32,000 nucleotides of DNA from Archaeoglobus fulgidus DSM 4304 (lineage in GTDB: Archaea > Halobacteriota > Archaeoglobi > Archaeoglobales > Archaeoglobaceae), in contig NC_000917.1 of assembly GCF_000008665.1 (NCBI RefSeq), positions 1,470,001-1,502,000 on the forward strand, written 5' to 3'. The notes beneath the pieces were generated by a model, which was given only the letters and a program-made list of their open reading frames with translations, searched no databases and had not been told where the DNA came from. Within the stretch, counting starts at the first letter, position 1. Every line of letters starts with the position of its first letter. This document shows, piece by piece, positions 11,734-30,855 of the stretch. Both the position numbers and the translations under genes were made by a program.

Positions 11734-12092
11734 TGATGCGCTTTTCCAAGTTTCTGAAAGTTGAGGCAGACATCGTCGTGGCAAGGCACGCTCTGGTGAT
11801 GGACGAGACGAAGAGCAAAGCTGAGCCCGTCATATTCCTCCATCCTGAATTCGCCAAGAGGAGCGGTGTGAAGGAGGGGGATGTGGTTGAGGTTGAGGCT
11901 AACGGCAGAACTGTGAAGCTTAGAGCAAAGCTATCAGAAAACGCTCCCGAGAATGGTGGGATAATGCCCAACGGCATCTTCGCGAGCTACCTGACAGGCT
12001 TTGATGGTTTCAAGAGGTTCAAGGCCAATATTGAGGTGGCTGAGGGGGAGCCGACATCGTTTGAGGAGATTCTCGAAAAAATAAAAGGTTAA
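11733..12092 (+). CDS. fwdD: Formylmethanofuran dehydrogenase subunit D-like (molybdopterin dinucleotide-binding beta-barrel domain)
   Basis: About 119 aa with the typical FwdD/molydop_binding pattern (VIFLHPEFAKRSGVKEGDVVEVEANGRTVKLRAKLSENAPENGGIMP). SD AAGGAGGG lies at 11719-11726. The start overlaps the fwdB stop. Confidence 0.8.
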   Translation: MMRFSKFLKVEADIVVARHALVMDETKSKAEPVIFLHPEFAKRSGVKEGDVVEVEANGRTVKLRAKLSENAPENGGIMPNGIFASYLTGFDGFKRFKANIEVAEGEPTSFEEILEKIKG

Positions 12093-14821
12093 GAAACAAC
12101 AATATTTTTCACAACCACTTTTACAACCTTGTAGCTATAGTCAATCACGGCCATTTTCACCGTGTACTCCCCCGGTGAGCCGAAGGACATTGTTGTTGTT
12201 GCCCCCATCCTCATTCGGCCGTTGCTGAACACCCAGATGATCTGTTTATAGTTTATTCCTTCAACGTAGGCCTTGAAAGTAATTCTTTGACCTGCCTTTG
12301 GCTCTTCTGGCGTGTAGGTGAAGTCGGCAACAACCGCTTTCTCTTCGTAGGTGTAGCTTCCAACATTGCCCGCAAGGTCTTCCATGGTTATCTTAATGGT
12401 TGAATCTGCGATGCTGCACTTCCAGACGTCTCCTTCTCTCTGCATCTCAATACCGTTGGCCCTGGCCCACTTCAACTCTTCCGACGGTTTTACGATGAGC
12501 GTGTCGCTATTCTTTTCTACACTGAGAACTTCAGGTGGCTTTGTATCGAGAGTAAAGGTTAGCCTTTCACTTGCCGCATTCAAAGCTTCAACCCACCACG
12601 TGTGGTCTCCGTCAGCAATGTTTGCGTTTACAGTAATTTCCCCTGAACCATAGCCCTCATACACGGCGTTGCCGTCAACGTAGAGCGTAAAGGCAGCTTC
12701 AACGGGCAGCACAAATTTGAATTCTGCCTTGTTTGTTACGCCACTCGGCTCAAGCAGCTCTATCTGAATTTCAGGTAGGTTTATTTCAATGCTGTTAGCA
12801 TTTCCGGCCTTGTCAATAGCGGTGAGCTTTGCATGGGTTGATTTGACCACAACATCCCAGCTAATTCCGTCTCCACTTACACTGCAGTCACCTTCATCTA
12901 CTCTCAGCTCAACTTCTTCCGAGGTTCTGAGAACGACCTTGTAGCCATTATCGCTCCACCCCTCCTCAACTACAGTTATTTCAGGCTTGGTGATATCAAC
13001 TGTAATCAGAACGGTTTCTTCAGCCTTGTTTCCGTCATGGTCGATGGCGACAACTTTGACCTCATGTTTTCCTTCCGTGAGGGTGAGCTCCGGGGCTGTT
13101 TCAACACCATCCAGCAGGTAAATCACCTCATCCACCGCAGTTTCCGCATCATAGGCGCTGACAGCTAAGCTTAGCTCTGTGTAGTTTATGTACTCTGGAA
13201 GGGCCGGAAGCTCAATGACGGGTGTGTTGATGTCCCTGAGTGTTATATTGACGGTCATGTCGCCATCCGCTATGAAGGTGTGCTCAGCATAGCCCTCGGC
13301 AGAAACTGTTACAACAGCACCCTTTTCAACCATCAACGTGAAATAACCGTCATCATCCGTCTTTGTCATTTCTGAGCCCGCTTCAACAACCGCATCAACA
13401 GGCTTTCCGAGGGAGTTGAGAACGTAGCCCTCAACGGTAACCATAGGCTCATAAACTCTCAGGATTGTGGTTGTTGAGTTCTTTAACCCCTTGTCGTCGC
13501 ATGCGGTGATTTTGACCTGATACTCCCCACTCTTCTCGTAAACGTGGTTGATTCCCGGAGCTACCCACGAAGTTCCATCGCCGAACTCCCACTTAACCCA
13601 GACAACTTTACCATCCGGGTCGTAGGATAGGGATTTGAAGAATACCGGCTCTCCTGCCACCGGCTTTTCGGGAGTAATTTCGAAGAGAACCACTGGTGGC
13701 TGATTCTTTGAAACCTGCATGTTCATAGCTGCTGCAAAGGCCCTGTAAGCGTCAACGATACCGCTGCCCGACTTAACGTCCTTCCCAGCAATCTCAATGT
13801 CCGTTGCTGATTCTTCAATTGCCCTCTTAACGTCTTCTGGCGTAAAATCGGTATTTGCCTGAAGCAGTAGCGCAGCTATTCCCGAAACATGCGGTGTTGC
13901 CATTGACGTGCCTGAAAGGGAAGCGTAGCCCCCATCCTTCCACGTTGAAACAACCGCCACACCCGGAGCGACGACGTCGGGCTTAATGTACTCTGGATTG
14001 TAGCCAACAGGCCCGCGGCTGCTGAAGTAAGCAACTTTGCCGGCTTTGTCCACAGCTCCAACAGTTATTGCGTTCTCTGCCGAGCCGGGAGAGGCTATGC
14101 TCCTTTCCCCAAGCTCTCCCGAGTTCCCTGCAGCGATTACCGCCACAACTCCCCTTCTCACAATGTCGTTCACAGCCTCGCTCAGTATGTCGTGTCCGTT
14201 GGACGGGTAAACCACGTAGGCTGTAACGTCTGCCTCAACCTTTCTGTCTCCCGAATTTGTGAGCCTGATGGTCCAGTTGCCCTTTTCGAGGACAGTCGAT
14301 GGTGAATACTGGCAGTCGAAGTAAGAACTTGTGACGGTGCACTGAGGCTTTACTGCAGTCCCTGACGGTGAGATGAGCTGGAATTCGAAGCTTTCGGGAA
14401 TTTCTTTGGACAACGTGTGCATTACGATGAACCAGCCATTTGCAGTCCAGCCAGCGTTGCCGGTCTCAACGTCATCGTAAAAGCCGATTTCGGGTATTGC
14501 TATGTTGTCTATCCAGACATAGTTGTCACCGTACGACTCAAAAATTAGCCTTCCCGCAGTGCTGGAGCTTAACTGTATGCTCTTCCAGCTGTTGTAGGTT
14601 GCAGAAGACAGAGAGAGCAGCTCCTTGGTTTCCCCGTTCGCCTCAAGCTTAACAACAAAGCTCCCTCTCACATACCCTATAATGTCGAACTTAAGCGTGA
14701 AGGGCCTGTCAACGTCCATTTCAAGGGTCCTTGTTCCACCGTAAGGCGGCGCAGCCCAGACGTAGTTCACCGTGTCGGGATTAACCCTCAGCTTAATGTA
14801 ACTCGGCACGAAGTTGTCCAT
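12089..14821 (-). CDS. S8 protease, C-terminal fragment (inserted domains, Asn/Ser catalytic motifs, PKD, CarboxypepD_reg-like and Ig-like repeats)
   Basis: AAGNSG and GTSMATPHVSG are present, plus a PKD motif (WEFGDGT), a GYVLNSLGKPV...TDDDGYF domain and a second PKD-like domain at the C-terminus. The frame stays open upstream of ATG 14821, up to about 14958. Confidence 0.8.
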   Translation of the reverse strand: MDNFVPSYIKLRVNPDTVNYVWAAPPYGGTRTLEMDVDRPFTLKFDIIGYVRGSFVVKLEANGETKELLSLSSATYNSWKSIQLSSSTAGRLIFESYGDNYVWIDNIAIPEIGFYDDVETGNAGWTANGWFIVMHTLSKEIPESFEFQLISPSGTAVKPQCTVTSSYFDCQYSPSTVLEKGNWTIRLTNSGDRKVEADVTAYVVYPSNGHDILSEAVNDIVRRGVVAVIAAGNSGELGERSIASPGSAENAITVGAVDKAGKVAYFSSRGPVGYNPEYIKPDVVAPGVAVVSTWKDGGYASLSGTSMATPHVSGIAALLLQANTDFTPEDVKRAIEESATDIEIAGKDVKSGSGIVDAYRAFAAAMNMQVSKNQPPVVLFEITPEKPVAGEPVFFKSLSYDPDGKVVWVKWEFGDGTSWVAPGINHVYEKSGEYQVKITACDDKGLKNSTTTILRVYEPMVTVEGYVLNSLGKPVDAVVEAGSEMTKTDDDGYFTLMVEKGAVVTVSAEGYAEHTFIADGDMTVNITLRDINTPVIELPALPEYINYTELSLAVSAYDAETAVDEVIYLLDGVETAPELTLTEGKHEVKVVAIDHDGNKAEETVLITVDITKPEITVVEEGWSDNGYKVVLRTSEEVELRVDEGDCSVSGDGISWDVVVKSTHAKLTAIDKAGNANSIEINLPEIQIELLEPSGVTNKAEFKFVLPVEAAFTLYVDGNAVYEGYGSGEITVNANIADGDHTWWVEALNAASERLTFTLDTKPPEVLSVEKNSDTLIVKPSEELKWARANGIEMQREGDVWKCSIADSTIKITMEDLAGNVGSYTYEEKAVVADFTYTPEEPKAGQRITFKAYVEGINYKQIIWVFSNGRMRMGATTTMSFGSPGEYTVKMAVIDYSYKVVKVVVKNIVVS

Positions 14822-15600
14822 GTCATCGTAAACTTCTCCGAGGCTCGAATAAACCGGAAGATTAATTTCGTAGCTCTCTCCTGAGTTGAGAACTTTTCCG
14901 TAGCTCCCCCCAATCCGGGCAATGCTCCAAGACTCATGCTTATCACGTCCGCACCATTTTCATAGGCCCACTGTATCCCCATGAGAACGGTTGAGAGCTT
15001 CCCGCTCCCCCTGCTGTCGAGAACCTTTGCTGCCATGATTTCCGCTTCCGGAGCGACTCCTGTTATCTCTCCAGCGATTGTTCCTGCAACGTGAGTTCCG
15101 TGTCCGTTATCGTCGTAGGGCTCAGTTTGCCCGTTGACGAAGTCAGCAAAGGCTACGATTCTATCAGCAAAATCCGGGTGCCTCGCAACGCCGGTGTCTA
15201 TGACGGCAACCTTAACCCCGCTACCCTTGTAGCCCATTTTCCATACTCCCGAGACGTTTATGAAGTCAAGGTTCCACACGTCTGCTTCACTGACAGACGT
15301 TGCTGTGGTGGAGAAGAGATCAGGCATGGATAGCATCTGTATTTCGTCAACGGCCTTTACGTCGACGTCGGGATAGACTCCTTCAACATAGGGATTCTCC
15401 GACAGCTTTTTGATTTCATCTTCACTCAAATCAGCCGCAATGACGCTGAACAGCTCTATTTTCTTTGCTCCGTGCATTGTGGCAGCAACGTCATCCAGAT
15501 ATCCGTCCGCAACCTTTATAATCACTGGAACTCCTGCTGCCGTTTGGAGACTCACTATTATCACCAAGCTCATTATTATTATTGTCCTTATACTCATCAT
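14788..15600 (-). CDS. S8 protease, N-terminal fragment (signal peptide, propeptide, Asp and His catalytic motifs)
   Basis: MMSIRTIIIMSLVIIVSLQTAAG is the signal, and DTGV, HGTHVAG and SMSLG motifs follow. The last 37 codons after ...LGG (ATEKF...) look out of frame. Confidence 0.8.
   Translation of the reverse strand: MMSIRTIIIMSLVIIVSLQTAAGVPVIIKVADGYLDDVAATMHGAKKIELFSVIAADLSEDEIKKLSENPYVEGVYPDVDVKAVDEIQMLSMPDLFSTTATSVSEADVWNLDFINVSGVWKMGYKGSGVKVAVIDTGVARHPDFADRIVAFADFVNGQTEPYDDNGHGTHVAGTIAGEITGVAPEAEIMAAKVLDSRGSGKLSTVLMGIQWAYENGADVISMSLGALPGLGGATEKFSTQERATKLIFRFIRASEKFTMTWTTSCRVTLS
14906..14911 (-). other. C6 (plus) / G6 (minus) homopolymer at the protease frameshift; the minus strand reads G_GGG_GGA in the upstream frame
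   Basis: The minus strand reads ccc gga ttG GGG GGA gct. A -1 shift, or one extra G, gives ...LGGSYGKVLNSGESYEINLP..., which is continuous with the 910-aa ORF. Confidence 0.8.
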
Positions 15601-15751: not shown

Positions 15752-16741
15752 TCATTTTTCTCTGCAGTAGTAGAGCACACCGCCATGTATGAAGAAAAAC
15801 ACACCCTTCTCTCTGTCATAGAACAGATGCTCGAACGTCTCTTCAGCGGCCTTTGAAATGTCCTCAAACCTCTCCACCTCAACCATTTCCAGATTTGTTT
15901 CAGGCATTCTGGCAAAGGAAACTTCTTTCAGCTTCTTTTCCCAAGAAACTCTTTCTATTTCCCTTTCAAGGGAGGAAACATCGCTGTATTTAGTTCTGTA
16001 AACTACCGACAGGCCGGCGAAGATTATAGAAACTGTGCATAATGCTGCCGGAATTACCTTCATATGCAGCGGTTTTTGAACTTCAACGACTCTGGTGGAA
16101 GGCATTTCAAAATCTCTTGTCTCGTTAAGCGTTGAGAAGGAGTAGTAGGTGCTCTGCACGTCTATTGGTATCTTAAAGCTTAATGTTTCGTCAACGTCTT
16201 TGCCCGTAATCTTTCCGTAGTAATGCACGCTGACATCGATTCTGGCCCCTGTTTTTCCAAGATAAACACCAAAGGAGTTCTGAGCTTCGTTAATTTTTGA
16301 CTTTAGGTCTGTGACATTTATTTTGAAGTTCGTTTTGATTTCTCCTCTGGATGTGTTGGATGCAGCGTAGTATACCTTCTCCCAGACGGGAGCGTCGCTA
16401 ACCTCGTAGAAGTAAACGATTTTTGCTTCAGTTTCGATGGTTATATCCCCTCTTGGAGCTGTTGTGAAGTAAAATTCTCCTGAATATTCGGGGGTGAGGG
16501 AGTAGGAGTACACCGGGAGGGTGACGAAGGACCCATTAGCCCATATCGGGTTGTCCTTCTTGACCTCTGCCCCACCGCTGAAGTATGCGAGTGCGGAGTA
16601 GTGCCTGATACTAATTTGAGTTTCCTTTGTCTCGGGGATTGTGGCCCAGTAAAGTGCGTAGGCTGATGCAACCAGCGTGATGAGCGAGATTATCAGAACC
16701 GGGATATACCATTTTCTCACGATTAGTTTAAAATTATTCAT
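15752..16741 (-). CDS. Bitopic membrane protein of unknown function; last gene of the TasA-like operon
   Basis: 329 aa. TM1 spans about residues 11-32 and is followed by a beta-rich domain of about 190 aa, predicted external. TM2 spans about 228-248 (VIPAALCTVSIIFAGLSVVY), followed by an acidic cytoplasmic tail of about 80 aa. The external domain contains SALAYFSGG. Confidence 0.6.
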   Translation of the reverse strand: MNNFKLIVRKWYIPVLIISLITLVASAYALYWATIPETKETQISIRHYSALAYFSGGAEVKKDNPIWANGSFVTLPVYSYSLTPEYSGEFYFTTAPRGDITIETEAKIVYFYEVSDAPVWEKVYYAASNTSRGEIKTNFKINVTDLKSKINEAQNSFGVYLGKTGARIDVSVHYYGKITGKDVDETLSFKIPIDVQSTYYSFSTLNETRDFEMPSTRVVEVQKPLHMKVIPAALCTVSIIFAGLSVVYRTKYSDVSSLEREIERVSWEKKLKEVSFARMPETNLEMVEVERFEDISKAAEETFEHLFYDREKGVFFFIHGGVLYYCREK

Positions 16742-16750
16742 GTTATTTTT

Positions 16751-17623
16751 TCACCCTCCTCCTATATGTTTCTTTCGAGGTTTGTAGTAAACTGGTTTGA
16801 GCAGCAGCGTTGCAATTGCTGAGGTAACGAGGGGTGTGAGCCAGAGGATGCCCAGCCTGTAGAGGGGATAGAGGAGGATTAAAGGCATTGCACCGTTGAT
16901 GGCGGTGTTGAAGCTGTAGCTTGCAGACTCGCCCGGGTTGAGAACGGAGTAGTAAGGGGGCTCGGAGTGGAAAAGATAAACAGTGAGGAAGCCTTTGTTG
17001 ATTACACCCCCATCAACGACCTCAAGCGTGGGATTGAAAGCGGCGAAGGAAATAATCAGCGCTGCAGCGAAGGTTACAACCAAATAGTGTGTTTTTAGAG
17101 CTTTTTTGTTTCTTCTCTCATGCATTAACTTGATTCTTTCCCTCCTTTTCAGTATCTTTTCCTCCATTGTGAGATTCCTGAACTCTGAAGCCATCAAAAC
17201 AGATGCGGGGATGAGAATGAACAGCAGGTACATCATAATATTCCGGTTCTTGAATTCGTGGAAGAGGTAGCCAATGTAAGGTATTCCGAATAGAAATTTG
17301 CCGTAAACGTCTTTTTCGTGCACATCAAAGGGGTCAACATCCTCAACAGCATCGCCCTTCGTCTTAAAGTAGCCATCCCCTATTTCCACAACTCTGTGGG
17401 TTATCAAAACGGACTTCTTCCCCGAAGGGTCCTTGAATGCCACAACATCCCCCAGAGAAACGTCCGAGCTTCTTTTAACAACAATAAGGTCTCCCGGATG
17501 CATGAGCGGCTCCATGCTGCTGCTCAGAACGACGAGGATGCGCACATCATCGCTATAAACCTCATAGGCGGAAAAGAGGATGAAAACAACAAATAGAGCA
17601 GTTATCAAACCACTAATATTCAT
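16751..17623 (-). CDS. Signal peptidase I, S26B (SipW/Sec11 type), long form with a multi-TM C-terminal extension
   Basis: After an N-terminal TM come Ser box VLSSSMEP, His box LITHRVV and TKGDAVEDVD. Residues from about 146 to 290 add a basic helix (RRERIKLMHERRNKK) and roughly three more hydrophobic segments. Confidence 0.8.
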   Translation of the reverse strand: MNISGLITALFVVFILFSAYEVYSDDVRILVVLSSSMEPLMHPGDLIVVKRSSDVSLGDVVAFKDPSGKKSVLITHRVVEIGDGYFKTKGDAVEDVDPFDVHEKDVYGKFLFGIPYIGYLFHEFKNRNIMMYLLFILIPASVLMASEFRNLTMEEKILKRRERIKLMHERRNKKALKTHYLVVTFAAALIISFAAFNPTLEVVDGGVINKGFLTVYLFHSEPPYYSVLNPGESASYSFNTAINGAMPLILLYPLYRLGILWLTPLVTSAIATLLLKPVYYKPRKKHIGGG

Positions 17624-17624
17624 T

Positions 17625-18059
17625 CTACTCCTCCAGAGTTATTGTCACGGGAATTTCAACGACCTTATATGGGTAAGAGGGATATGAGATGGTGAGTTCT
17701 CCGACATAGGTTCCGTTTGTTTGTGGAGAAAGGTGCATTCCGACCTCCCAGTCATTCACGTTCTTCCTCAAAGAAAACTGAACAAAATCATCCCCATCCC
17801 AGCTCAGCTTTGGTATTCCGGGAGCATCAACTATTCTGAAAATTACATCGTAGCTGTACTCCTCATTGGGCTTACCGTAGAAATCTATTTTTACAGGGCT
17901 CTCCTTTTTTACAAAGCTCACGGTGGGGTAGATTTCAGAGGCCCAGTGCCCGCTTTTGAATGTGCTTCTCTGAGACTCTACGTCGTAGAAGTAGCTAAGA
18001 GTTCCTGAGACCATTATAAGGAATCCTATTACGGTTGCGAAGAGCAGAATTTTTCTCAT
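17625..18059 (-). CDS. Small secreted protein with a SipW-type signal motif (possible minor fibre subunit)
   Basis: 144 aa. MRKILLFATVIGFLIMVSGTLSYFYDVES shares the N-terminal motif with the four TasA-like ORFs, but the protein lacks their C-terminal YQGD motif. Both gene junctions overlap or abut the neighbours. Confidence 0.65.
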   Translation of the reverse strand: MRKILLFATVIGFLIMVSGTLSYFYDVESQRSTFKSGHWASEIYPTVSFVKKESPVKIDFYGKPNEEYSYDVIFRIVDAPGIPKLSWDGDDFVQFSLRKNVNDWEVGMHLSPQTNGTYVGELTISYPSYPYKVVEIPVTITLEE

Positions 18060-18511
18060 TTCAACTCACCAACTATACTCTTTATCTCAATAATTAATAA
18101 AGCTATTCCCGGGATGAGGATTAAGAGCAGATAACCCGGCAGAGTTCTAACAACACTGCCAAGCAATCCAAGCTTCGGGATTTTTGCCACATAAACCCCA
18201 ACAACGCTGTCATAGCTTACGGGCTCATCCTCTCTCGGCAGGTTGTCACCTTTCGTGATTATCGCCTCGGACGTTTTCTCAACCACTCTGTGCGTGATGA
18301 GGTATGTTTTTCCATCAATGGTTTTCTTGTAGGTTACGATATCCCCTACTTCCACATCGGAAGGATTTTTGGGGAAAATTAAAATCAGGTCTCCCGTCTC
18401 CAGTTCGGGGAGCATGGAAGTGCCGTAGGTGTTCAGAACCCTCACTCCACTAAGGTAGAGGGCCAGAATTGTCAGAAGAATGGCTGATAGAAGATAAAGT
18501 TTCGGCCTCAT
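18056..18511 (-). CDS. Signal peptidase I, S26B (SipW/Sec11 type), short form
   Basis: 151 aa with an N-terminal TM, Ser box YGTSMLP, His box LITHRVV, TKGDNLPREDEP and a C-terminal TM. ATGA overlaps occur at both ends. Confidence 0.85.
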   Translation of the reverse strand: MRPKLYLLSAILLTILALYLSGVRVLNTYGTSMLPELETGDLILIFPKNPSDVEVGDIVTYKKTIDGKTYLITHRVVEKTSEAIITKGDNLPREDEPVSYDSVVGVYVAKIPKLGLLGSVVRTLPGYLLLILIPGIALLIIEIKSIVGELK

Positions 18512-19440
18512 CTCACAACAACTCCGTGGGCGGCGATGCAGTTGCCGTAGTCAACCACGTACTCATCAAAGTTAGAATTTAGCCCCTCGTGTTTGTAGGG
18601 GAATTTTCCCGGAGCGGACTTGGGAGGTGGACAGTCTCCGACGTAGAGGTGGGTTTCAGTCAGCATCCATCCACCATTTACGCTGTATTTCACCCTTATT
18701 TTCCCGCCAGCATCCTCGACTGTCAGGGAGCCCACGTGAATGTGCCGACCTGCGTAAATGGGAACCTGCAGCCCTCCACCGGTGTATGTGAAGTAACCAC
18801 CCCATCCCTGTCCAAACTCATGGAAATCTCCGCCTATCGCCCAGCAGGTCTCCTCCTCACCTCCATTGCCATCAACCTGCTCAAGGGACAGCTCAAGGTC
18901 AAACTTTGCCAAATCTCCCTGATACTCATTCTCAGCACTGCTGTTGATGTGGAAGGTGAAGTGGACGTCGCAAACCTCCCCCGGAGCAATGGGTGAGGTG
19001 TAGAATTTTAAATCCTCAAGTTCCCTCAGCGTTTTGTTGTCGTTCTCCACAATCAACTGGGAAAAGCTCTCGCACTCCACCCATATGCCAGTGAAGGTCT
19101 GATAGGAGATGTTGTTTATTTCATTAAGATAGTCGAATCTCGCCTCTTCCTCTGTAAACACTCCTCCAAAGTCCCTCACGTTGAAGATTTTAAGGTCAAC
19201 AACAGCCGGATTGTTTCCGGCGTTCTTAATCCTTATTATCTTCTCTTTGTATTCGCAGGGCTTCGCCTCGATGTCGATGAGCTTACCCGGGTTGTCAACC
19301 CATCCGTTTTGCCAAACTTTGAGGTCAATGTAGCCTGTTGTGTAGGTTGATGGGGAAGATTCAGCATCTGAAAAGTAGGCCAGAGTGCTTCCGGCAAATA
19401 AAATTAAAGAAATTGAAAAAAATATAAGGTAATTTCTCAT
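18508..19440 (-). CDS. TasA/camelysin-like secreted protein fused to an extra C-terminal Gly/aromatic-rich domain
   Basis: The TasA-like core is STLAYFSDAES, TGYIDLKV, AKPCEYK, IKNAGNNPAVV and ENEYQGDLAKFDLELSLEQ. A GNGGEEE linker follows, then about 114 further residues (18511-18852). Confidence 0.75.
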   Translation of the reverse strand: MRNYLIFFSISLILFAGSTLAYFSDAESSPSTYTTGYIDLKVWQNGWVDNPGKLIDIEAKPCEYKEKIIRIKNAGNNPAVVDLKIFNVRDFGGVFTEEEARFDYLNEINNISYQTFTGIWVECESFSQLIVENDNKTLRELEDLKFYTSPIAPGEVCDVHFTFHINSSAENEYQGDLAKFDLELSLEQVDGNGGEEETCWAIGGDFHEFGQGWGGYFTYTGGGLQVPIYAGRHIHVGSLTVEDAGGKIRVKYSVNGGWMLTETHLYVGDCPPPKSAPGKFPYKHEGLNSNFDEYVVDYGNCIAAHGVVVR

Positions 19441-20192
19441 TATTCGCTCGCCACCTGCTCAAGCTTCACGATGATGTCGAAGAAAGTTATGTCGCCCTGA
19501 TACTTGTTGCCTGCGTCAGTTGAAAAGTCGATGTACATGGCCAATTCGAGGTAGCTGTCGGTTCCGTTGTACCAACCGTCGTTGTCTATTTCTGGCGGAG
19601 GTATGTTGTCAAAGCCTGTCATCGCCAAATCCTCCAAATCCATGTAGCCGTTGGAGTTTGCGTCAACGAGGTTGTAAGGTGCAGCAAGTCCGGTGGCTGT
19701 TGGCTGATAGTTGTCTATAATCTTGTCGTCCCTGACCAGAGCGTTATTGGTGTACCACTTGAAGTGCAGATGATGTAGTTTGATGTAGGCCCCCATTCCG
19801 TTAGCTCCAAGATGTCCGGTGGCGTAAGGGACGCCAATTATGGGAGACTGGCTGACGTCCGAATCACTCTCTGGCCCCGCAACAAATCCATCTGTTGCAT
19901 TGCCGTTGTCATCCTCGTAGTACTCAAAGCTGAAGTTTATCTCAAGATGGTCTCCTTTGTTCTCCCCCCAGTTCCATATTCTCAGCTTCCCGTCCTCTCC
20001 GGGCTCGCCCGGCTTCCAGTCATAGATGTCGAGTGCAACGTGCCCCGGAATATCATTGGTAAGGCCTATGTCCATCGTTCCCGCTTCAAAGTAGTTCTCT
20101 CCCGTCTCTTCCACATCAGCAAAGTAGGCGTAGGTGCTGAGGGTTGCCATCGCTATGGCAGCGATAAACACAAAGGCTGCAGCGGTCTTCAT
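19440..20192 (-). CDS. TasA/camelysin-like secreted protein with Asp-rich, Ca-binding-like insertions
   Basis: [27 protein letters not shown] and [19 protein letters not shown] are present. SD GAGGTG lies 6 nt upstream. An EF-hand/dockerin-like loop [12 protein letters not shown] lies at 19629-19664. Confidence 0.75.
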
Positions 20193-20202
20193 TTTTCACA
20201 CC

Positions 20203-20802
20203 TCAGTATGGGGCACCGTCATCATTAACCTGGAAGGCCTTGAAGACGATGTCAAACTGCATCTGGTCGCCCTGATACTCGTTTCCTGCATCGCTTTTCA
20301 TGTGGAAGCTGAACAGCACATTCACGCACTCGTCTGGCTGAAGTGTTGTCAGCTCGTACCAAGTTCCCTCAACGTCCCTCACTGTCAAAACTCCTTCCTT
20401 AACAAGAACGTTCCAGCCTTCACCTTTGTTGTAGGCCAAGTCAAACCACGTCACGTTCGAAAGGTCGTTTATCAGCCCACTTGGGTCAGCTTCAAGCTCC
20501 GGCTCGGTAACTTCATTGTTCGACTCGGTGATGTTGTCTATTCTCGTGTAAACGACGGCCGGATTTGTTCCATTGTTGCAGACGAGCTTGTAAACGCAGA
20601 AGTTCAAGCTCGGCTTTGCGTCATCCGTAACAATCACAGATGTAGTCCATGGATTCTCGCCGTCAACTGAGATATCAATGGTGCCCGCAGTGATGGTGTT
20701 GTTGTCGCTCACCTCAACGTCGTAGAAGTAGGTGAGGGTGCCAGTAGCAATCACTGCCATCATGAATCCGATGGAAAGGATGCTGAGCAGCAGTTTTCTC
20801 AT
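20203..20802 (-). CDS. TasA/camelysin-like secreted protein
   Basis: GTLTYFYDVEVS, AGTIDISV, DDAKPS, CNNGTNPAVV and GNEYQGDQMQFDIVFKAFQ are present. I prefer ATG 20802 (SD GGTGA 5 nt upstream) to GTG 20811. Confidence 0.75.
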   Translation of the reverse strand: MRKLLLSILSIGFMMAVIATGTLTYFYDVEVSDNNTITAGTIDISVDGENPWTTSVIVTDDAKPSLNFCVYKLVCNNGTNPAVVYTRIDNITESNNEVTEPELEADPSGLINDLSNVTWFDLAYNKGEGWNVLVKEGVLTVRDVEGTWYELTTLQPDECVNVLFSFHMKSDAGNEYQGDQMQFDIVFKAFQVNDDGAPY

Positions 20803-20829
20803 TTCACTCACCTGAAAAAATTAGAGGAG

Positions 20830-21582
20830 TCACTCGAAGGGGTTGCTGTCGTCGTTGAGCTGCGTAACGGCAAACTTCAGGGTTGCTCCCCAGCTATCAG
20901 ACTGGGCCATGTTGTCAGTATCGGTAGGTGTCCACTCCCAGTAGATGCCGAAGCAGTATGTCTGGCATGCTTCCATGTATCCTCCCGGTAGATACTGGCT
21001 GAGGTTGAAGTTCGCATCGGAGATATCTTTCAGGTATCCGCTCCACAGCAGCTGTTCGCTGCCATCTCCGTTTCCATCAACAAACGTATCCCTACAGCCG
21101 AAAGGACAACCATCGTAGAAGTCATACTTGTTGTCGCAGTCGTCATCCCTCCAGATCATCACGTGGATGTACTCATCAAGCTCTCCATACCAAGCTCCAT
21201 CTGTGGTATCTCCTGCTTCCTGCTCTGGCTCCGTAAGGCCATTGTCATCGTCTTCCGTAACATCAACGGCAAACCACAGATAGCCTGGGTTGTTGTAGAG
21301 GTGCAGGCTAACTGTCATCTCTCCGCTATCTCCCGGCTTCACATCGTCGAGCTGCCAGAAGTAGTCCACAGATGCATTAAGGTCTTTCTCGCTAAAGTTG
21401 TGGTGGTAAACCTGACCATCCCACTTCCAGTATGTGCTGTTCAGGTCCACTTTCAGGTCGAGGCTGCCAGCCGTGAAGGTTCCCGGCGCCATTTCGGTGT
21501 CGCTGAAGTAGGCAAGGGTTCCCGCTCCAAGCCCAATTCCAATCAGCCCCACTACAAGGAGGCTGTACCAAACCTTTTTCAC
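20830..21582 (-). CDS. TasA/camelysin-like secreted protein with an Asp/Cys-rich insertion; first gene of the operon
   Basis: [20 protein letters not shown] and VKPGDSGE are present, with a degenerate C-terminal motif ([14 protein letters not shown]). SD GAGGTGA lies 6 nt upstream of GTG 21582; the ORF track starts at TTG 21588. Confidence 0.7.
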
Positions 21583-21616: not shown

Positions 21617-21649
21617 TTTAATATGCTTATTGAAATATAATTATGAATC
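21617..21649 (-). promoter_or_regulatory. Promoter module of the TasA-like operon: upstream element CATAATTATA.TTCAA plus TATA-like CATATTAAA
   Basis: The minus strand reads GATTCATAATTATATTTCAATAAGCATATTAAA, ending 34 nt upstream of GTG 21582. It matches 21948-21980 at 27 of 33 positions. Confidence 0.55.
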
Positions 21650-21715: not shown

Positions 21716-21928
21716 CTAATACACATCAAGCCTAACCAACCTCCGCCCACTTTCGCTGAGCTTCAGCTTCAGGTTTGCTCTTTCGACGAAATCCATCTCC
21801 ATCAGAAACTCCAGCACTTTTCTCAGCATCGCCCTCTCAACCCTCAGTTTTTCGGCCAATTCCCTTTCGGTCATCTCCTCCTCATTCAGAATGAGCAGAA
21901 TCTCATCGATAAGTTCTGGAACTTTCAT
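21716..21928 (-). CDS. Small winged-helix DNA-binding protein (putative transcriptional regulator)
   Basis: A 70-aa form starts MKVPELIDEILLILNEEEMTERELAEKLRVERAMLRKVLEFLMEMDFVER, which is an HTH-like pattern. The 89-aa form in the ORF track would place the conserved promoter module inside the coding region. Confidence 0.6.
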   Translation of the reverse strand: MKVPELIDEILLILNEEEMTERELAEKLRVERAMLRKVLEFLMEMDFVERANLKLKLSESGRRLVRLDVY

Positions 21929-21947: not shown

Positions 21948-21980
21948 TTTAATATGAATTTTGAAGTATAATTATGGATT
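21948..21980 (-). promoter_or_regulatory. Promoter module of the small wHTH gene, paralogous to the operon promoter
   Basis: The minus strand reads AATCCATAATTATACTTCAAAATTCATATTAAA, ending 19 nt upstream of ATG 21928. The TATA-like element is about 24 nt from the ATG, giving leaderless geometry. Confidence 0.55.
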
Positions 21981-22049: not shown

Positions 22050-22340
22050 TCAAAAAATTGAGTTTTCAACGGCATTTTTCAAAGCCTGAAGGTCTTCCTC
22101 AATTTCGCTGAATTTTTGTATGAATTCCCTTCCCTTTTCAGTTGTTCTGTACTTCGTTCTTTTACCATCAGTAACTGGCTCAATAAATCCTTCCTTCAAA
22201 AGGCAGTTAATGTAATCCTGAGCAACCTTAGAGTTCAAATTCACTCTGTAAACAATTTTGGTAATGTTAACTCCATTTCCGGAGCACGTCTGAAGAATTT
22301 CAGCCATGATTTCGATTTTGGACCTTCTCATTTCTGCCAC
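22050..22340 (-). CDS. Winged-helix transcriptional regulator (archaeal small wHTH family)
   Basis: SKIEIMAEILQTCSGNGVNITKIVYRVNLNSKVAQDYINCLLKEGFIE...RTKYRTTEKGREFIQ is typical of small archaeal wHTH proteins. The start is GTG 22340 or ATG 22331 (SD GGGTGG). Confidence 0.7.
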   Translation of the reverse strand: MAEMRRSKIEIMAEILQTCSGNGVNITKIVYRVNLNSKVAQDYINCLLKEGFIEPVTDGKRTKYRTTEKGREFIQKFSEIEEDLQALKNAVENSIF

Positions 22341-26677: not shown

Positions 26678-28048
26678 ATGCCTTTAATTAAAACACCGCC
26701 ACCGCACGGCGGAAAACTTGTTGAGAGAGTTGTTAAAAAGAGAGACATTGCTGAAAAAATGATTGCTGGATGCCCAACTTATGAACTGAAGCCCACAACG
26801 CTGCCCGATGGTACACCAATTCGCCACGTTTACAGAGAGATAATGTCCGTCTGTTACGGCTTTTTCAGCCCCGTTGAGGGATCGATGGTGCAGAACGAGC
26901 TTGAGAGAGTTCTTAACGAGAGGAGATTGCTGAGCGAATGGATTTTCCCCTATCCGATTCTCTTCGACATCAGCGAGGAGGACTACAAGGCTCTCGACGT
27001 CAAAGAGGGAGACAGGCTCTTGCTCATGCTTAAAGGTCAGCCCTTTGCAACTCTCGACATCGAGGAAGTTTACAAGATTGACCCCGTAGATGTTGCAACC
27101 CGCACCTTTGGCACTCCGGAAAAGAACCCTGAAGTTGTGAGAGAGCCATTTGACGACAAGCATCCGGGATACGTGATTTACAAGATGCACAATCCAATCA
27201 TTCTTGCAGGAAAGTACACGATTGTGAACGAGCCCAAGTTCAAGGAGCCCTACGACAGGTTCTGGTTCCCACCGTCAAAATGCAGAGAAGTAATTAAGAA
27301 CGAGAAGAAGTGGAGAACGGTCATTGCCCACCAGACGAGAAACGTCCCCCACGTGGGGCATGAGATGCTGATGAAGTGTGCTGCTTACACCGGCGACATC
27401 GAGCCGTGCCACGGAATTCTCGTAAACGCCATCATTGGAGCAAAGAGGAGAGGTGACTATCCGGATGAGGCAATCCTTGAGGGGCATGAGGCTGTAAACA
27501 AGTACGGCTACATCAAGCCTGAGAGGCACATGGTCACCTTCACGCTCTGGGACATGAGGTACGGCAACCCGATTGAGTCGCTGCTGCACGGAGTTATCAG
27601 GCAGAATATGGGATGTACGCACCACATGTTCGGCAGAGACCACGCTGCGGTTGGAGAGTACTACGACATGTACGCGACGCAGATACTCTGGAGCCAGGGC
27701 ATTCCGAGCTTCGGCTTCGAAGCTCCGCCCAATGAGGTGGACTACGGCCTGAAGATTATCCCACAGAACATGGCTGAGTTCTGGTACTGCCCAATCTGCC
27801 AGGAAATCGCCTACAGCGAAAACTGTGGCCACACCGATGCGAAGCAGAAGTTCAGCGGAAGCTTCCTGAGAGGAATGGTTGCCGAGGGAGTCTTCCCGCC
27901 GAGAGTTGTCATGAGGCCTGAGGTTTACAAGCAAATCGTAAAGTGGTGGAAAGTGTACAACTACCCCTTCGTCAACAGAAAGTACCTCGAACTCAAGAAC
28001 AAGGAGCTTGAGATCGACCTCCCGGCGATGGAGGTTCCCAAGGCGTGA
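26678..28048 (+). CDS. sat: Sulfate adenylyltransferase (dissimilatory ATP sulfurylase)
   Basis: IAHQTRNVPHVGHEMLMK is the ATP-sulfurylase HxxH region, GxxRDHAAVG is present (here FGRDHAAVG), and there is a CPIC...C.H zinc site. It is followed by aprBA. A strong SD favours ATG 26678 (456 aa) over GTG 26669. Confidence 0.93.
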   Translation: MPLIKTPPPHGGKLVERVVKKRDIAEKMIAGCPTYELKPTTLPDGTPIRHVYREIMSVCYGFFSPVEGSMVQNELERVLNERRLLSEWIFPYPILFDISEEDYKALDVKEGDRLLLMLKGQPFATLDIEEVYKIDPVDVATRTFGTPEKNPEVVREPFDDKHPGYVIYKMHNPIILAGKYTIVNEPKFKEPYDRFWFPPSKCREVIKNEKKWRTVIAHQTRNVPHVGHEMLMKCAAYTGDIEPCHGILVNAIIGAKRRGDYPDEAILEGHEAVNKYGYIKPERHMVTFTLWDMRYGNPIESLLHGVIRQNMGCTHHMFGRDHAAVGEYYDMYATQILWSQGIPSFGFEAPPNEVDYGLKIIPQNMAEFWYCPICQEIAYSENCGHTDAKQKFSGSFLRGMVAEGVFPPRVVMRPEVYKQIVKWWKVYNYPFVNRKYLELKNKELEIDLPAMEVPKA

Positions 28049-28052
28049 GGTG

Positions 28053-28406
28053 ATGGAGATGCCGCACTACATTTCCGTTTTCCTGGATGATGAGAGGTAC
28101 GAGAAAATCAAGGGAACACCGCTTGAGGAGAAAATCACGTACCTCTTTGGTGGCCAGCTTAAATCTCTGATCGTAGAGGTGCCGGAAGAGAAATCAGAGC
28201 AGATTCTCAAGGCCTTTGACAAGGCAAGAATTGACTCAAGGGGCTACATCGAAGATGTACCAGTAGCTTTCAGAAGAGCACTGTTCGAGGAAATTGCAAA
28301 GGCAAAGTCTTTGGATGTCATAGACAAGGTCCTTGAAAGGCTGGATGAGCTGGTGGAGGCAGCAAAGAAGGAGGATGAGTACATACCTCCACCAGATATA
28401 GAGTAA
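28053..28406 (+). CDS. Small acidic hypothetical protein between sat and aprB
   Basis: An ORF of about 117 aa (MEMPHYISVFLDDERYEKIKG...). SD GAGGTG lies at 28047-28052, so ATG 28053 or 28059 rather than 28008. No recognisable motifs. Confidence 0.6.
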   Translation: MEMPHYISVFLDDERYEKIKGTPLEEKITYLFGGQLKSLIVEVPEEKSEQILKAFDKARIDSRGYIEDVPVAFRRALFEEIAKAKSLDVIDKVLERLDELVEAAKKEDEYIPPPDIE

Positions 28407-28411
28407 TTTAA

Positions 28412-28420
28412 TTTTTTTTT
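28412..28420 (+). terminator. T9 tract 6 nt after the ORF2 stop, between sat-ORF2 and aprBA
   Basis: TTTTTTTTT lies at 28412-28420, and SD GGAGGTGA at 28442-28449 serves aprB. This could be a partial archaeal terminator or attenuation point. Confidence 0.3.
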
Positions 28421-28454
28421 AGAAAAATGTATGAAAAGGTTGGAGGTGAGTTGA

Positions 28455-28907
28455 ATGCCATCGTTTGTAAACCCGGAAAAGTGTGACGGATGTAAGGCGT
28501 TGGAGAGAACGGCGTGTGAGTACATCTGCCCCAACGACTTGATGACACTCGATAAAGAGAAGATGAAAGCGTACAACAGAGAGCCGGACATGTGCTGGGA
28601 GTGCTACAGCTGTGTTAAGATGTGCCCGCAGGGCGCAATTGACGTGAGAGGCTACGTGGACTACTCCCCGCTTGGCGGAGCCTGTGTGCCAATGAGAGGA
28701 ACCTCAGACATCATGTGGACGGTCAAGTACAGAAACGGAAAGGTTCTGAGGTTCAAGTTCGCCATCAGAACAACCCCGTGGGGCTCAATTCAGCCCTTCG
28801 AGGGATTCCCTGAGCCGACCGAGGAGGCATTGAAGAGCGAACTGCTTGCTGGAGAACCCGAGATTATTGGAACGAGCGAGTTCCCGCAGGTAAAGAAGAA
28901 GGCTTAA
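28455..28907 (+). CDS. aprB: Adenylylsulfate (APS) reductase beta subunit (2x[4Fe-4S])
   Basis: MPSFVNPEKCDGCKALERTACEYICPNDLM...CWECYSCVKMCPQGAI matches AprB, including the C-terminal tail that wraps AprA. Confidence 0.95.
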   Translation: MPSFVNPEKCDGCKALERTACEYICPNDLMTLDKEKMKAYNREPDMCWECYSCVKMCPQGAIDVRGYVDYSPLGGACVPMRGTSDIMWTVKYRNGKVLRFKFAIRTTPWGSIQPFEGFPEPTEEALKSELLAGEPEIIGTSEFPQVKKKA

Positions 28908-28923
28908 AGGTGAGGTGGTAGAA

Positions 28924-30855
28924 ATGGTATATTATCCGAAAAAGTATGAGTTGTATAAGGCAGATGAAGTGCCGACAGAGGTTGTGGAGACGGACATCTT
29001 GATTATCGGAGGAGGTTTCTCCGGCTGTGGTGCAGCGTACGAGGCTGCCTACTGGGCAAAGCTTGGCGGTTTGAAGGTTACGCTTGTTGAGAAAGCAGCA
29101 GTTGAGAGAAGCGGAGCTGTTGCCCAGGGTCTTTCAGCCATTAACACATACATCGACCTTACCGGCAGGTCCGAGAGGCAGAACACCCTTGAGGATTACG
29201 TCAGATACGTCACCCTCGACATGATGGGATTGGCGAGAGAGGACCTTGTTGCTGACTACGCAAGGCATGTTGACGGAACGGTCCACCTCTTCGAGAAGTG
29301 GGGACTGCCCATCTGGAAGACTCCCGATGGGAAGTACGTCAGAGAGGGACAGTGGCAGATAATGATTCACGGTGAGAGCTACAAGCCAATCATCGCAGAA
29401 GCTGCGAAGATGGCAGTCGGTGAGGAGAACATCTACGAGAGAGTTTTCATCTTCGAGCTTCTGAAGGACAAGAACGACCCCAACGCTGTGGCCGGAGCCG
29501 TCGGTTTCAGCGTTAGAGAGCCCAAGTTCTACGTGTTCAAGGCGAAAGCCGTCATTCTGGCAACCGGAGGTGCAACACTGCTCTTCAGGCCGAGAAGCAC
29601 TGGCGAAGCAGCAGGAAGGACATGGTATGCAATCTTCGACACTGGCAGCGGTTACTACATGGGCTTGAAGGCCGGAGCGATGCTCACGCAGTTTGAACAC
29701 CGCTTCATACCCTTCAGGTTCAAGGACGGTTACGGCCCAGTTGGAGCATGGTTCCTGTTCTTCAAGTGTAAGGCCAAGAACGCGTATGGAGAGGAGTACA
29801 TCAAGACAAGGGCTGCAGAGCTTGAGAAGTACAAGCCCTACGGTGCAGCCCAGCCAATCCCGACACCGCTGAGAAACCACCAGGTCATGCTCGAAATCAT
29901 GGACGGCAACCAGCCAATCTACATGCACACTGAGGAGGCTCTCGCTGAGCTGGCTGGAGGAGACAAGAAGAAGCTGAAGCACATCTACGAGGAGGCTTTC
30001 GAGGACTTCCTCGACATGACAGTCAGCCAGGCTCTGCTGTGGGCCTGCCAGAACATCGACCCGCAGGAGCAGCCGTCTGAAGCTGCACCGGCTGAGCCCT
30101 ACATCATGGGTTCACACAGCGGTGAGGCAGGTTTCTGGGTATGCGGTCCTGAGGATCTGATGCCGGAGGAGTACGCAAAGCTCTTCCCGCTGAAGTACAA
30201 CAGGATGACCACAGTCAAGGGACTCTTCGCCATCGGTGACTGTGCTGGTGCCAACCCGCACAAGTTCTCCAGCGGTTCGTTCACTGAGGGCAGGATTGCA
30301 GCGAAGGCCGCAGTGAGGTTCATCCTCGAGCAGAAGCCCAACCCAGAAATTGACGATGCGGTCGTTGAGGAACTCAAGAAGAAGGCCTACGCACCGATGG
30401 AGAGGTTCATGCAGTACAAGGACCTCTCAACTGCCGATGACGTCAACCCAGAGTACATCCTGCCGTGGCAGGGTCTTGTCAGGCTGCAGAAGATCATGGA
30501 CGAGTATGCTGCTGGAATTGCAACAATCTACAAGACCAACGAGAAGATGCTGCAGAGAGCTCTTGAGCTGCTCGCCTTCCTGAAGGAGGACCTCGAGAAG
30601 CTCGCTGCAAGAGACCTCCACGAGCTGATGAGAGCATGGGAGCTTGTCCACAGAGTCTGGACTGCTGAGGCACACGTCAGGCACATGCTCTTCAGAAAGG
30701 AAACCAGATGGCCCGGATACTACTACAGAACCGACTACCCAGAGCTCAACGACGAGGAGTGGAAGTGCTTCGTCTGCAGCAAGTACGACGCTGAGAAGGA
30801 CGAGTGGACCTTCGAGAAAGTGCCGTACGTGCAGGTCATCGAGTGGAGCTTCTAA
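28924..30855 (+). CDS. aprA: Adenylylsulfate (APS) reductase alpha subunit (FAD)
   Basis: The FAD dinucleotide fold TDILIIGGGFSGCGAAYEAAYW is present and the protein is AprA-like throughout. ATG 28924 (MVYYPKKYELYK...) is preferred to GTG 28915. Confidence 0.95.
   Translation: MVYYPKKYELYKADEVPTEVVETDILIIGGGFSGCGAAYEAAYWAKLGGLKVTLVEKAAVERSGAVAQGLSAINTYIDLTGRSERQNTLEDYVRYVTLDMMGLAREDLVADYARHVDGTVHLFEKWGLPIWKTPDGKYVREGQWQIMIHGESYKPIIAEAAKMAVGEENIYERVFIFELLKDKNDPNAVAGAVGFSVREPKFYVFKAKAVILATGGATLLFRPRSTGEAAGRTWYAIFDTGSGYYMGLKAGAMLTQFEHRFIPFRFKDGYGPVGAWFLFFKCKAKNAYGEEYIKTRAAELEKYKPYGAAQPIPTPLRNHQVMLEIMDGNQPIYMHTEEALAELAGGDKKKLKHIYEEAFEDFLDMTVSQALLWACQNIDPQEQPSEAAPAEPYIMGSHSGEAGFWVCGPEDLMPEEYAKLFPLKYNRMTTVKGLFAIGDCAGANPHKFSSGSFTEGRIAAKAAVRFILEQKPNPEIDDAVVEELKKKAYAPMERFMQYKDLSTADDVNPEYILPWQGLVRLQKIMDEYAAGIATIYKTNEKMLQRALELLAFLKEDLEKLAARDLHELMRAWELVHRVWTAEAHVRHMLFRKETRWPGYYYRTDYPELNDEEWKCFVCSKYDAEKDEWTFEKVPYVQVIEWSF

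Follow-up and report, generated by a model that had tools for sequence, protein, structure and literature searches.

A probable TasA-type fibre operon of Archaeoglobus fulgidus and the motif shared behind the hydrophobic N-termini of its products

Why should five proteins encoded at one locus of a hyperthermophilic archaeon carry nearly the same short motif directly behind otherwise dissimilar hydrophobic N-terminal segments? The question is raised by a 32-kb stretch of the Archaeoglobus fulgidus genome, hereafter the window, and the answer which the comparison of its sequences favours is that the locus most likely builds an extracellular, Sec-dependent fibre of the TasA type. Eight minus-strand genes of the window, from AF_1661 to the gene of a DUF5305 protein, overlap or lie 1–27 nt apart, and we interpret the region as a tightly coupled eight-gene operon, the probable TasA-type fibre operon of A. 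fulgidus. Its motif-bearing products, designated here P1 to P5, are encoded at 20830–21582 (P1, AF_1661, 250 aa, the first gene of the operon), 20203–20802 (P2, 199 aa), 19440–20192 (P3, 250 aa), 18508–19440 (P4, 310 aa) and 17625–18059 (P5, 144 aa). All five open reading frames (ORFs) are present on the minus strand, and for every one of them the starts and ends agree with those called independently on identical contigs of A. fulgidus. The P5 gene is flanked by two genes for signal peptidase I, of 151 aa (18056–18511) and 290 aa (16751–17623), and the DUF5305 gene (15752–16741, 329 aa) completes the series; the junctions of P4 with the smaller peptidase gene and of the latter with P5 are ATGA start-stop overlaps. 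Homologous loci were read as 20-kb stretches, and the same operon with the same gene order recurs in metagenome-assembled genomes of an Archaeoglobus (L007) and of another member of Archaeoglobaceae (L008), with all motifs kept.

The existence of five paralogues with a single motif close to the cleavage site was the starting point of the original prediction, and it is borne out by the statistics of the window. The core YF[SYA]D[VAT]E has exactly five matches in the six-frame translation, all in the five ORFs named above and each directly after the hydrophobic N-terminal segment, while 0.002 matches are expected from composition and none appeared in 200 shuffles. The ten-residue motif is encoded on the minus strand at 21493–21522 in P1 (predicted mature start YFSDTE), 20713–20742 in P2 (GTLTYFYDVE), 20109–20138 in P3 (predicted mature start YFADVE), 19360–19389 in P4 (STLAYFSDAE) and 17976–18005 in P5 (GTLSYFYDVE). 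When the proteins are aligned on the motif and numbered from the predicted cut, T(-3), Y(+1), F(+2), D(+4) and E(+6) are identical in all of them, and no position of the hydrophobic segment is common to more than three of the five; conservation does peak at the end of this segment and just after it, as had been claimed. The list of conserved residues given at that time was right about the motif and captured only in part a second block, (F/I/Y)-x-(A/T/S)-G-x-(I/L/M/W)-D, which lies 11–19 residues past the cut and matches F39-ASGTLD of TasA. Outside the motifs P1–P4 are only 25–33% identical; P3 shares the C-terminal N-x-YQGD...Q motif.

To which family do these proteins belong? The scoring against TIGR04088 (SipW-dependent-type signal peptide, curated cutoff 19 bits) that had been proposed as a check places P1, P2, P3 and P4 above the cutoff with 41.4, 38.7, 27.4 and 30.1 bits and gives 18.3 bits for P5; two of five P5 homologues pass the same model (26.1 and 20.3 bits). 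Likewise, P1–P4 exceed the gathering threshold of PF12389 (Peptidase_M73/TasA, 22.5 bits) with 32.5, 39.4, 28.8 and 37.0 bits, respectively, and P5 stays below it with 14.2 bits. Among 116 homologues the consensus of the motif proteins is T-x-A / Y-F-S-D-T-E-T-S-x-G-N-T-F-T-A-G-T-I-D-I-S-V-D-G-E-N-P-W, with T(-3) in 92% and A(-1) in 88% of the sequences, F(+2), D(+4) and E(+6) in 100%, and conservation remaining high out to +28. Most of these homologues belong to candidate-phyla bacteria, DPANN-type archaea, Dehalococcoidales and Bacillota, and at every related bacterial locus examined the motif gene adjoins a peptidase candidate with the catalytic-serine motif S-x-SM-x-P/SGSMEP. By sequence, the motif is a hallmark of the TasA or ‘SipW-cognate signal’ family. 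It is not special to the paralogues of A. fulgidus, because TIGR04088, PF12389 and public annotation already capture it: motif proteins are annotated as ‘TasA family protein’ or as ‘SipW-cognate class signal peptide’ proteins, the first paralogue is listed by UniRef and NCBI as AF_1661, ‘TasA family protein [A. fulgidus]’, and PF12389 proteins in Archaeoglobales were noted in a 2022 survey.

The relation to TasA allows the cut site to be placed. A profile of 12 family members, compared with the sequences of the PDB, finds TasA both as the fibre (8aur_A, E=3.3e-5) and as the monomer (5of1, E about 4e-5), and Phe26 of the profile falls on the second residue of the mature 8aur_A chain, which is TasA Phe29. 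Mature TasA is experimentally known to start at Ala28 (PMC9674648, PMC10151520). With Phe26 aligned to Phe29, the Tyr of the motif is the counterpart of Ala28, so that a cut like that of SipW in TasA would fall immediately ahead of this Tyr. The cleavage site is accordingly predicted as T-x-(A/T/S) / Y-F-x-D-x-E, with a small residue before the cut and Tyr after it. Upstream of the cut, the T-x-A of the motif resembles the -3/-1 site of a peptidase. What follows the cut corresponds to the strand donated by TasA, residues 28–38, in which Phe29 makes a key hydrophobic contact and whose deletion has served as a donor-strand mutant (PMC9674648). The first residues of TapA, AFHDI, mimic the AFNDI of TasA (PMC10151520), and in AbpX-like fibres the start of the donor strand conserves an aromatic residue and, two positions on, an acidic residue that binds calcium at the interface between strand and groove (bioRxiv 10.64898/2026.01.04.697558).

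Are the residues past the cut conserved for the peptidase or for the fibre? The latter is more likely, judging from the alignments, because the conservation to +28 extends well past the cut and because the other invariant residues of the family map to the interface between TasA subunits. Pro64 and Gln191 of P2 are, together with F26 and D28, invariant in an alignment of 121 sequences that includes P1, P3 and P4, and F26, D28, P64 and Q191 align with F29, D31, P62 and Q232 of TasA. Pro62 and Gln232 have been named as conserved inter-protomer interface residues that belong to a conserved pocket around Phe29 (PMC10151520). The original prediction of a SipW-cognate signal is upheld by the TIGR04088 match; of the two ideas that it mentioned, recognition by the peptidase and donation of the strand, we favour the second for the residues past the cut. 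The n-regions (MKK, MRK, MK, MRN and MRK) have no twin-arginine pair, which fits the Sec-type variants of Archaeoglobales and Thermococcales.

Fold prediction points in the same direction. The test of the fold by model concerns P2, for which AlphaFold2 was given 121 sequences; the resulting model (predicted local distance difference test score, pLDDT, 90.3) consists of a signal helix at residues 2–27, an unpacked coil at residues 28–43 and a beta-rich domain. Its only match in the PDB at E<=1e-3 is the TasA fibre 8aur_A (E=1.8e-4, TMq 0.53), and P2 may be described as a minimal TasA-like jelly-roll subunit. A PDB search with the single sequence of P2 matched only the GlmU beta-helix and repebodies, and the same search with P4 had no match. 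We consider the similarity of P2 to the left-handed beta-helix of GlmU spurious, as it stems from a short repeat-like segment and disappears with the family profile, which found TasA. The segment in question, residues 20–62 (GTLTYFYDVEVSDNNTITAGTIDISVDG), matches the GlmU hexapeptide repeat with E of about 1e-4 and is a possible trap for automated annotation. Two names attached to the family were also set aside as statements of function. ‘Predicted ribosomally synthesized peptide with SipW-like signal peptide’, as used by the Joint Genome Institute (JGI), does not suit folded proteins of 144–310 aa, and the literal reading of Peptidase_M73 as a camelysin-type metalloprotease was rejected, since the zinc-binding motif HExxH is present in none of P1–P5 and P2 has a single His.

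The subunits differ from one another in several respects. Mature P1–P5 are acidic, with isoelectric points (pI) of 4.05–4.76 and 15–20% Asp and Glu; P1–P3 are at the acidic end (pI about 4.05, 17–20% Asp and Glu), and mature P1 itself has pI 4.05 and 20% Asp and Glu. P1 is the candidate major subunit. An identical P2 is encoded by the chromosome of strain DSM 8774 (CP006577) and by several metagenomic contigs. Its closest relatives outside Archaeoglobaceae (L009–L018) belong to Nealsonbacteria, WWE3, Dehalococcoidales, Bacillota and Nanoarchaeia-type archaea, and many of them end at the C-terminus in another extension, of about 130 aa; their patchy distribution suggests horizontal transfer. 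P3 is a family member with large insertions. In P4 the PF12389 domain covers residues 9–192 and is followed by an extra C-terminal domain of about 120 aa (18508–18870), rich in Cys and Gly, with no sequence match in Pfam or the PDB. Given this extra domain, and by analogy with TafC, P4 is a candidate for a variable tip or adhesin subunit; the whole P4 gene is missing from the otherwise identical operon of L008 (9605–10857 of that locus).

P5 stands apart. Compared profile to profile (hhalign), it is homologous to the TasA family over residues 1–38 only (95.8%, E=8e-9), and this N-terminal module comprises the end of the signal peptide and the whole extension that follows (YFYDVE...F-x-SGHW). 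The earlier view that the fifth protein keeps only the motif was thus right in confining the similarity to the N-terminus and too narrow in confining it to the motif. An AlphaFold2 model of moderate confidence, built from 5 sequences (pLDDT 72), shows residues 24–40 below 50 and an eight-strand sandwich over residues 42–142. No TapA family match was found for P5 in NCBIfam or Pfam, and TapA is absent from its top 50 Foldseek matches in the PDB. An exhaustive search with the mature domain returned two close relatives and weak matches to the Rib-domain repeats of large bacterial surface proteins, and the close homologues come, where the source is named, from Archaeoglobus-type contigs. TapA has a complete immunoglobulin (Ig) fold that is unable to accept a strand, and a flexible TasA-like N-terminus that starts fibre growth (PMC10151520). 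The architecture predicted for P5 by the model, a flexible TasA-like strand on a small Ig-like sandwich, would be TapA-like, P5 not being a member of the TapA family, and this analogy makes P5 a candidate for a strand-donating initiator or cap.

The remaining three genes probably supply the processing apparatus. The archaeal signal peptidase I model TIGR02228 recognises both peptidases (84.8 bits for the 151-aa protein and 80.8 bits for the 290-aa protein, cutoff 51.85 bits), and an alignment of four sequences shows the Ser, His and Asp positions kept in each of the two. The 151-aa peptidase is of the minimal SipW-like form, with two hydrophobic ends and invariant Ser32, His74, Asp89 and Asp95. 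The 290-aa peptidase conserves Ser36 and His76-Arg77 (the HR catalytic motif) and by hydropathy adds to the catalytic domain three further hydrophobic segments, four segments in all, and a short extracytoplasmic stretch. TafD, the signal peptidase of haloarchaeal Tafi pili, spans the membrane several times, has an HR motif and an extracytoplasmic part reported to resemble a pilin domain (PMC11821415). The layout of the 290-aa peptidase appears to correspond to that description, by which the two are likened here. The DUF5305 protein (PF17231, 83.4 bits, two membrane segments) would by the same analogy correspond to TafG, the proposed accessory subunit of the signal peptidase.

How would such a system operate? 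We envisage that P1–P5 are exported through Sec by signal peptides of the SipW-cognate class and that one or both of the Ser/His signal peptidases of the operon cut before Tyr. The motif would for the most part become the new N-terminus and enter, as a donor strand, the beta-sandwich of the next subunit, where the invariant Phe would anchor it by hydrophobic contact; Asp and Glu may join polar or metal-mediated contacts, and a dependence of assembly on calcium is conceivable. As the strand hardly differs among the five proteins and would fit the same kind of groove, a mixed fibre is possible, with P1 as the candidate major component, P2 and P3 as further subunits and P4 as the candidate tip. 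P5 has the strand while its Ig-like fold is closed, so that it would donate a strand and accept none, and could start or cap the fibre in the way TapA serves TasA. In the 290-aa peptidase and the DUF5305 protein we see the probable counterpart of the TafD/TafG processing module of the archaeal Tafi pili.

Several observations weigh against this scheme. The TIGR04088 score of P5 is just under the cutoff, and Foldseek relates its model, moderate in confidence, only to generic Ig-like, PapD-like and Rib-like domains with E of about 1e-3. The structural alignment of P2 with TasA has an identity of just 15% and a TM of 0.53, and P2 has at -1 a Thr, which is uncommon at signal peptidase sites and replaced by Ala in several orthologues. 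Strand insertion is argued from homology alone. Hydropathy reveals no C-terminal membrane anchor in any of P1–P5, which leaves attachment to the cell unexplained. Searches of the literature by locus tag yielded only unrelated papers, and the literature searched contained neither a paper nor experimental data on the locus.

One might ask whether a fibre is needed to explain the motif. It could be a mere recognition determinant for dedicated peptidases, and the proteins independent secreted monomers such as surface or matrix proteins or camelysin-like proteases. The name of the Pfam family, Peptidase_M73/camelysin, agrees with such monomers, as does the motif always occurring beside a SipW-type peptidase, and the unusual residues around the TasA cut site have been given as the reason why dedicated peptidases are needed (PMC10269814). 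Nevertheless, HExxH is lacking in all five proteins, the P2 model matches the TasA fibre, and the other invariant residues map to the subunit interface of TasA. A signal for recognition by a peptidase is expected to span just a few residues around the cut, and the conservation to +28 passes beyond such a footprint. We consider monomers a very improbable answer. Polymers might also form by strand donation without being mixed, each paralogue making its own homopolymer or different major subunits being used under different conditions. The low identity of P1–P4 outside the motifs and the dispensability of P4 in L008 speak for this arrangement, as does the variation of the major subunit among species in Tafi systems. 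We regard it as unlikely, however, in view of the tight coupling of all genes in a single operon with one conserved candidate promoter element in front, of the inability of P5 to polymerise alone if its Ig fold is complete, and of the mixed arrangements of tip, adaptor and major subunits proposed in the Tafi and AbpX models.

The role of P5 is subject to a further doubt, for P5 could be a terminator, or an adaptor proximal to the cell that links the fibre to a membrane protein (DUF5305 or the extracytoplasmic part of the 290-aa peptidase), instead of an initiator. Its gene, placed between those of the peptidases, is coupled to both in translation, a membrane anchor is absent from every subunit, and a pilin-domain-like extracytoplasmic part has been reported for TafD in Tafi. 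On the other hand, a strand donor with a closed fold fits only the groove-exposing end of the fibre, where TapA initiates, and there is no evidence of contact between P5 and membrane proteins; a role as terminator or adaptor seems to us rather unlikely, if less so than separate homopolymers. Speculatively, one may go further and picture an undescribed hybrid fibre machine that joins TasA-family subunits to a TafD/TafG membrane module and a second, SipW-like peptidase, in which the lineage-specific, 122-residue Ig-like P5 has independently come to fill the role of TapA, one peptidase only cleaves, and the other forms with DUF5305 a platform for assembly or anchoring. We would not give this idea much credence at present; if true, the peptidase-DUF5305 platform would explain how the fibre is retained at the cell without an anchored subunit. 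The reading we prefer remains the Sec-dependent TasA-type fibre with P1 as the candidate major subunit.

The surroundings of the operon hint at its regulation. Directly upstream of P1 lies a minus-strand gene for a TrmB/MarR-like winged-helix regulator of 70 aa (21716–21928; PF01978, 27 bits), called on identical contigs, and beyond it another for a winged-helix regulator of the HTH_45 type (22050–22340, minus strand; PF14947, 82.4 bits), which has the same position on other A. fulgidus contigs and is a candidate regulator of the operon. A 29-nt A/T-rich element, CATAATTATAYTTCAAWAWKCATATTAAA, occurs twice on the minus strand, where no match is expected in the window: one copy (21948–21976) is upstream of the TrmB-like gene, and the other (21617–21645) ends 34 nt upstream of the P1 start codon. 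An exact copy precedes P1 by about 29 nt in L008, and one exact copy is found further upstream of P1 in L007. The element is probably a shared promoter or operator that couples the TrmB-like regulator to the fibre operon. Within the 27-nt spacer of P1 and P2, a T6 tract (20815–20820, minus strand) is kept in three lineages whose spacers have otherwise diverged (about 8975–8981 in L007 and 8981–8987 in L008). It is possible, on weak evidence, that the tract acts as an archaeal oligo-T attenuator that makes P1 the most abundant product.

Downstream of the operon, at a distance of 151 nt, is an S8 subtilisin with PKD domains (12089–15600, minus strand). In the window it is split into ORFs of 270 and 910 aa that overlap at 14788–14821, and it is intact in strain DSM 8774 (1170 aa) and in L008 (1178 aa); the split is a frameshift or a sequencing error of the strain sequenced here. 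The subtilisin neighbours the operon in all loci seen, and we regard it as a conserved neighbour that is part of the fibre system only as a candidate. It contains an internal motif-like sequence, GFYDDVETGNAGWTANGW (14465–14482, minus strand), kept in L008 as GFHDDVENGNAGWTADGW. This loose match, FYDDVE, was rejected as a sixth substrate, being internal and having no signal peptide before it, with 0.4–0.5 loose matches expected; an inserted beta-sandwich domain probably begins with GFYDDVETGNAGWTANGW. Correspondence with locus L001 indicates that the plus strand of the window at about 26700–30800 carries sulfate-activation genes (ATP sulfurylase and subunits of adenosine 5'-phosphosulfate (APS) reductase) and that a class II ribonucleotide reductase gene and an alanine dehydrogenase-type OCD/mu-crystallin gene lie next to the operon; all these look like ordinary core metabolism.

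The signature and its annotation are already known, and the locus itself is new and unstudied. Somewhat unusual are the combination of TasA-family subunits with a Tafi-type processing module and a second peptidase, and the lineage-restricted mini-subunit of TapA-like architecture. TasA-type fibres hold Bacillus biofilms together, and related archaeal fibres formed by strand exchange were found only recently. A. fulgidus is a cultivable hyperthermophile that forms biofilms under stress, and the operon offers a concrete candidate for its matrix fibre, comprising four subunits and a TapA-like mini-subunit together with two dedicated peptidases and an accessory protein. It is also a good system in which to ask why such fibres need a signal peptidase of their own and how, with no chaperone-usher machine, their growth starts. 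What is gained is a well-defined target for experiments and not a new principle.

How does the locus compare with the systems already described? With the tapA-sipW-tasA operon of Bacillus subtilis (8AUR, 5OF1) it has in common jelly-roll subunits of PF12389, signals of the SipW-cognate class, a mature start of the form x-F-x-D (AFND in TasA, YFSD here) and a Ser/His peptidase in the operon. Like TapA, P5 would be a small accessory protein that combines the same strand with a complete Ig-like fold, and translational coupling ties its gene to that of a peptidase. The differences are the archaeal host, four TasA-like paralogues and two peptidases in place of one each, the presence of DUF5305 and the very acidic mature proteins; P5, moreover, has neither detectable homology to TapA nor its disordered C-terminal tail. 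On the archaeal side the parallels are with the Tafi pili (TafA–G): a multi-span peptidase like TafD is accompanied by a DUF5305 protein like TafG, a candidate tip with two domains is among several strand-donating subunits, and genes of small winged-helix regulators lie close by. The versions of Archaeoglobales and Thermococcales are also Sec-dependent. The operon is, however, separate from the Tafi-like locus AF_2076–AF_2081 already described in A. fulgidus, which has DUF1102 subunits (PMC11821415). Its own subunits belong to PF12389 and not to DUF1102, TafA or TafE (the Pfam scan gave no DUF1102 match), it has no twin-arginine signal and no TafF-like anchored subunit, and it contains an additional minimal peptidase of the SipW-like form. 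A single locus thereby links the bacterial TasA and the archaeal Tafi systems.

Two further archaeal fibres complete the picture. The calcium-dependent AbpX fibres of Pyrodictium abyssi (bioRxiv 10.64898/2026.01.04.697558) are likewise of the TasA superfamily, with a mature pI of about 4 and at least 15% acidic residues, and their donor strand starts with an aromatic residue followed two positions on by an acidic one, for which the counterpart here is Y-F-x-D-x-E; the larger AbpX-like loci also encode minor subunits, a tip, a signal peptidase and DUF5305. Their peptidase is described with ten membrane helices, in contrast to about two and about four hydrophobic segments in the peptidases of A. 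fulgidus, and AbpX forms a separate clade, whereas the proteins described here match PF12389 and TasA directly by sequence. The AbpA/AbpB bundling pili of Pyrobaculum calidifontis share a TasA-related pilin, N-terminal strand donation and a TapA-like partner. AbpA is related to TasA only at the level of profile and structure, and its locus is without a dedicated signal peptidase (PMC9245690), in comparison with which the operon of A. fulgidus is much closer to bacterial TasA.

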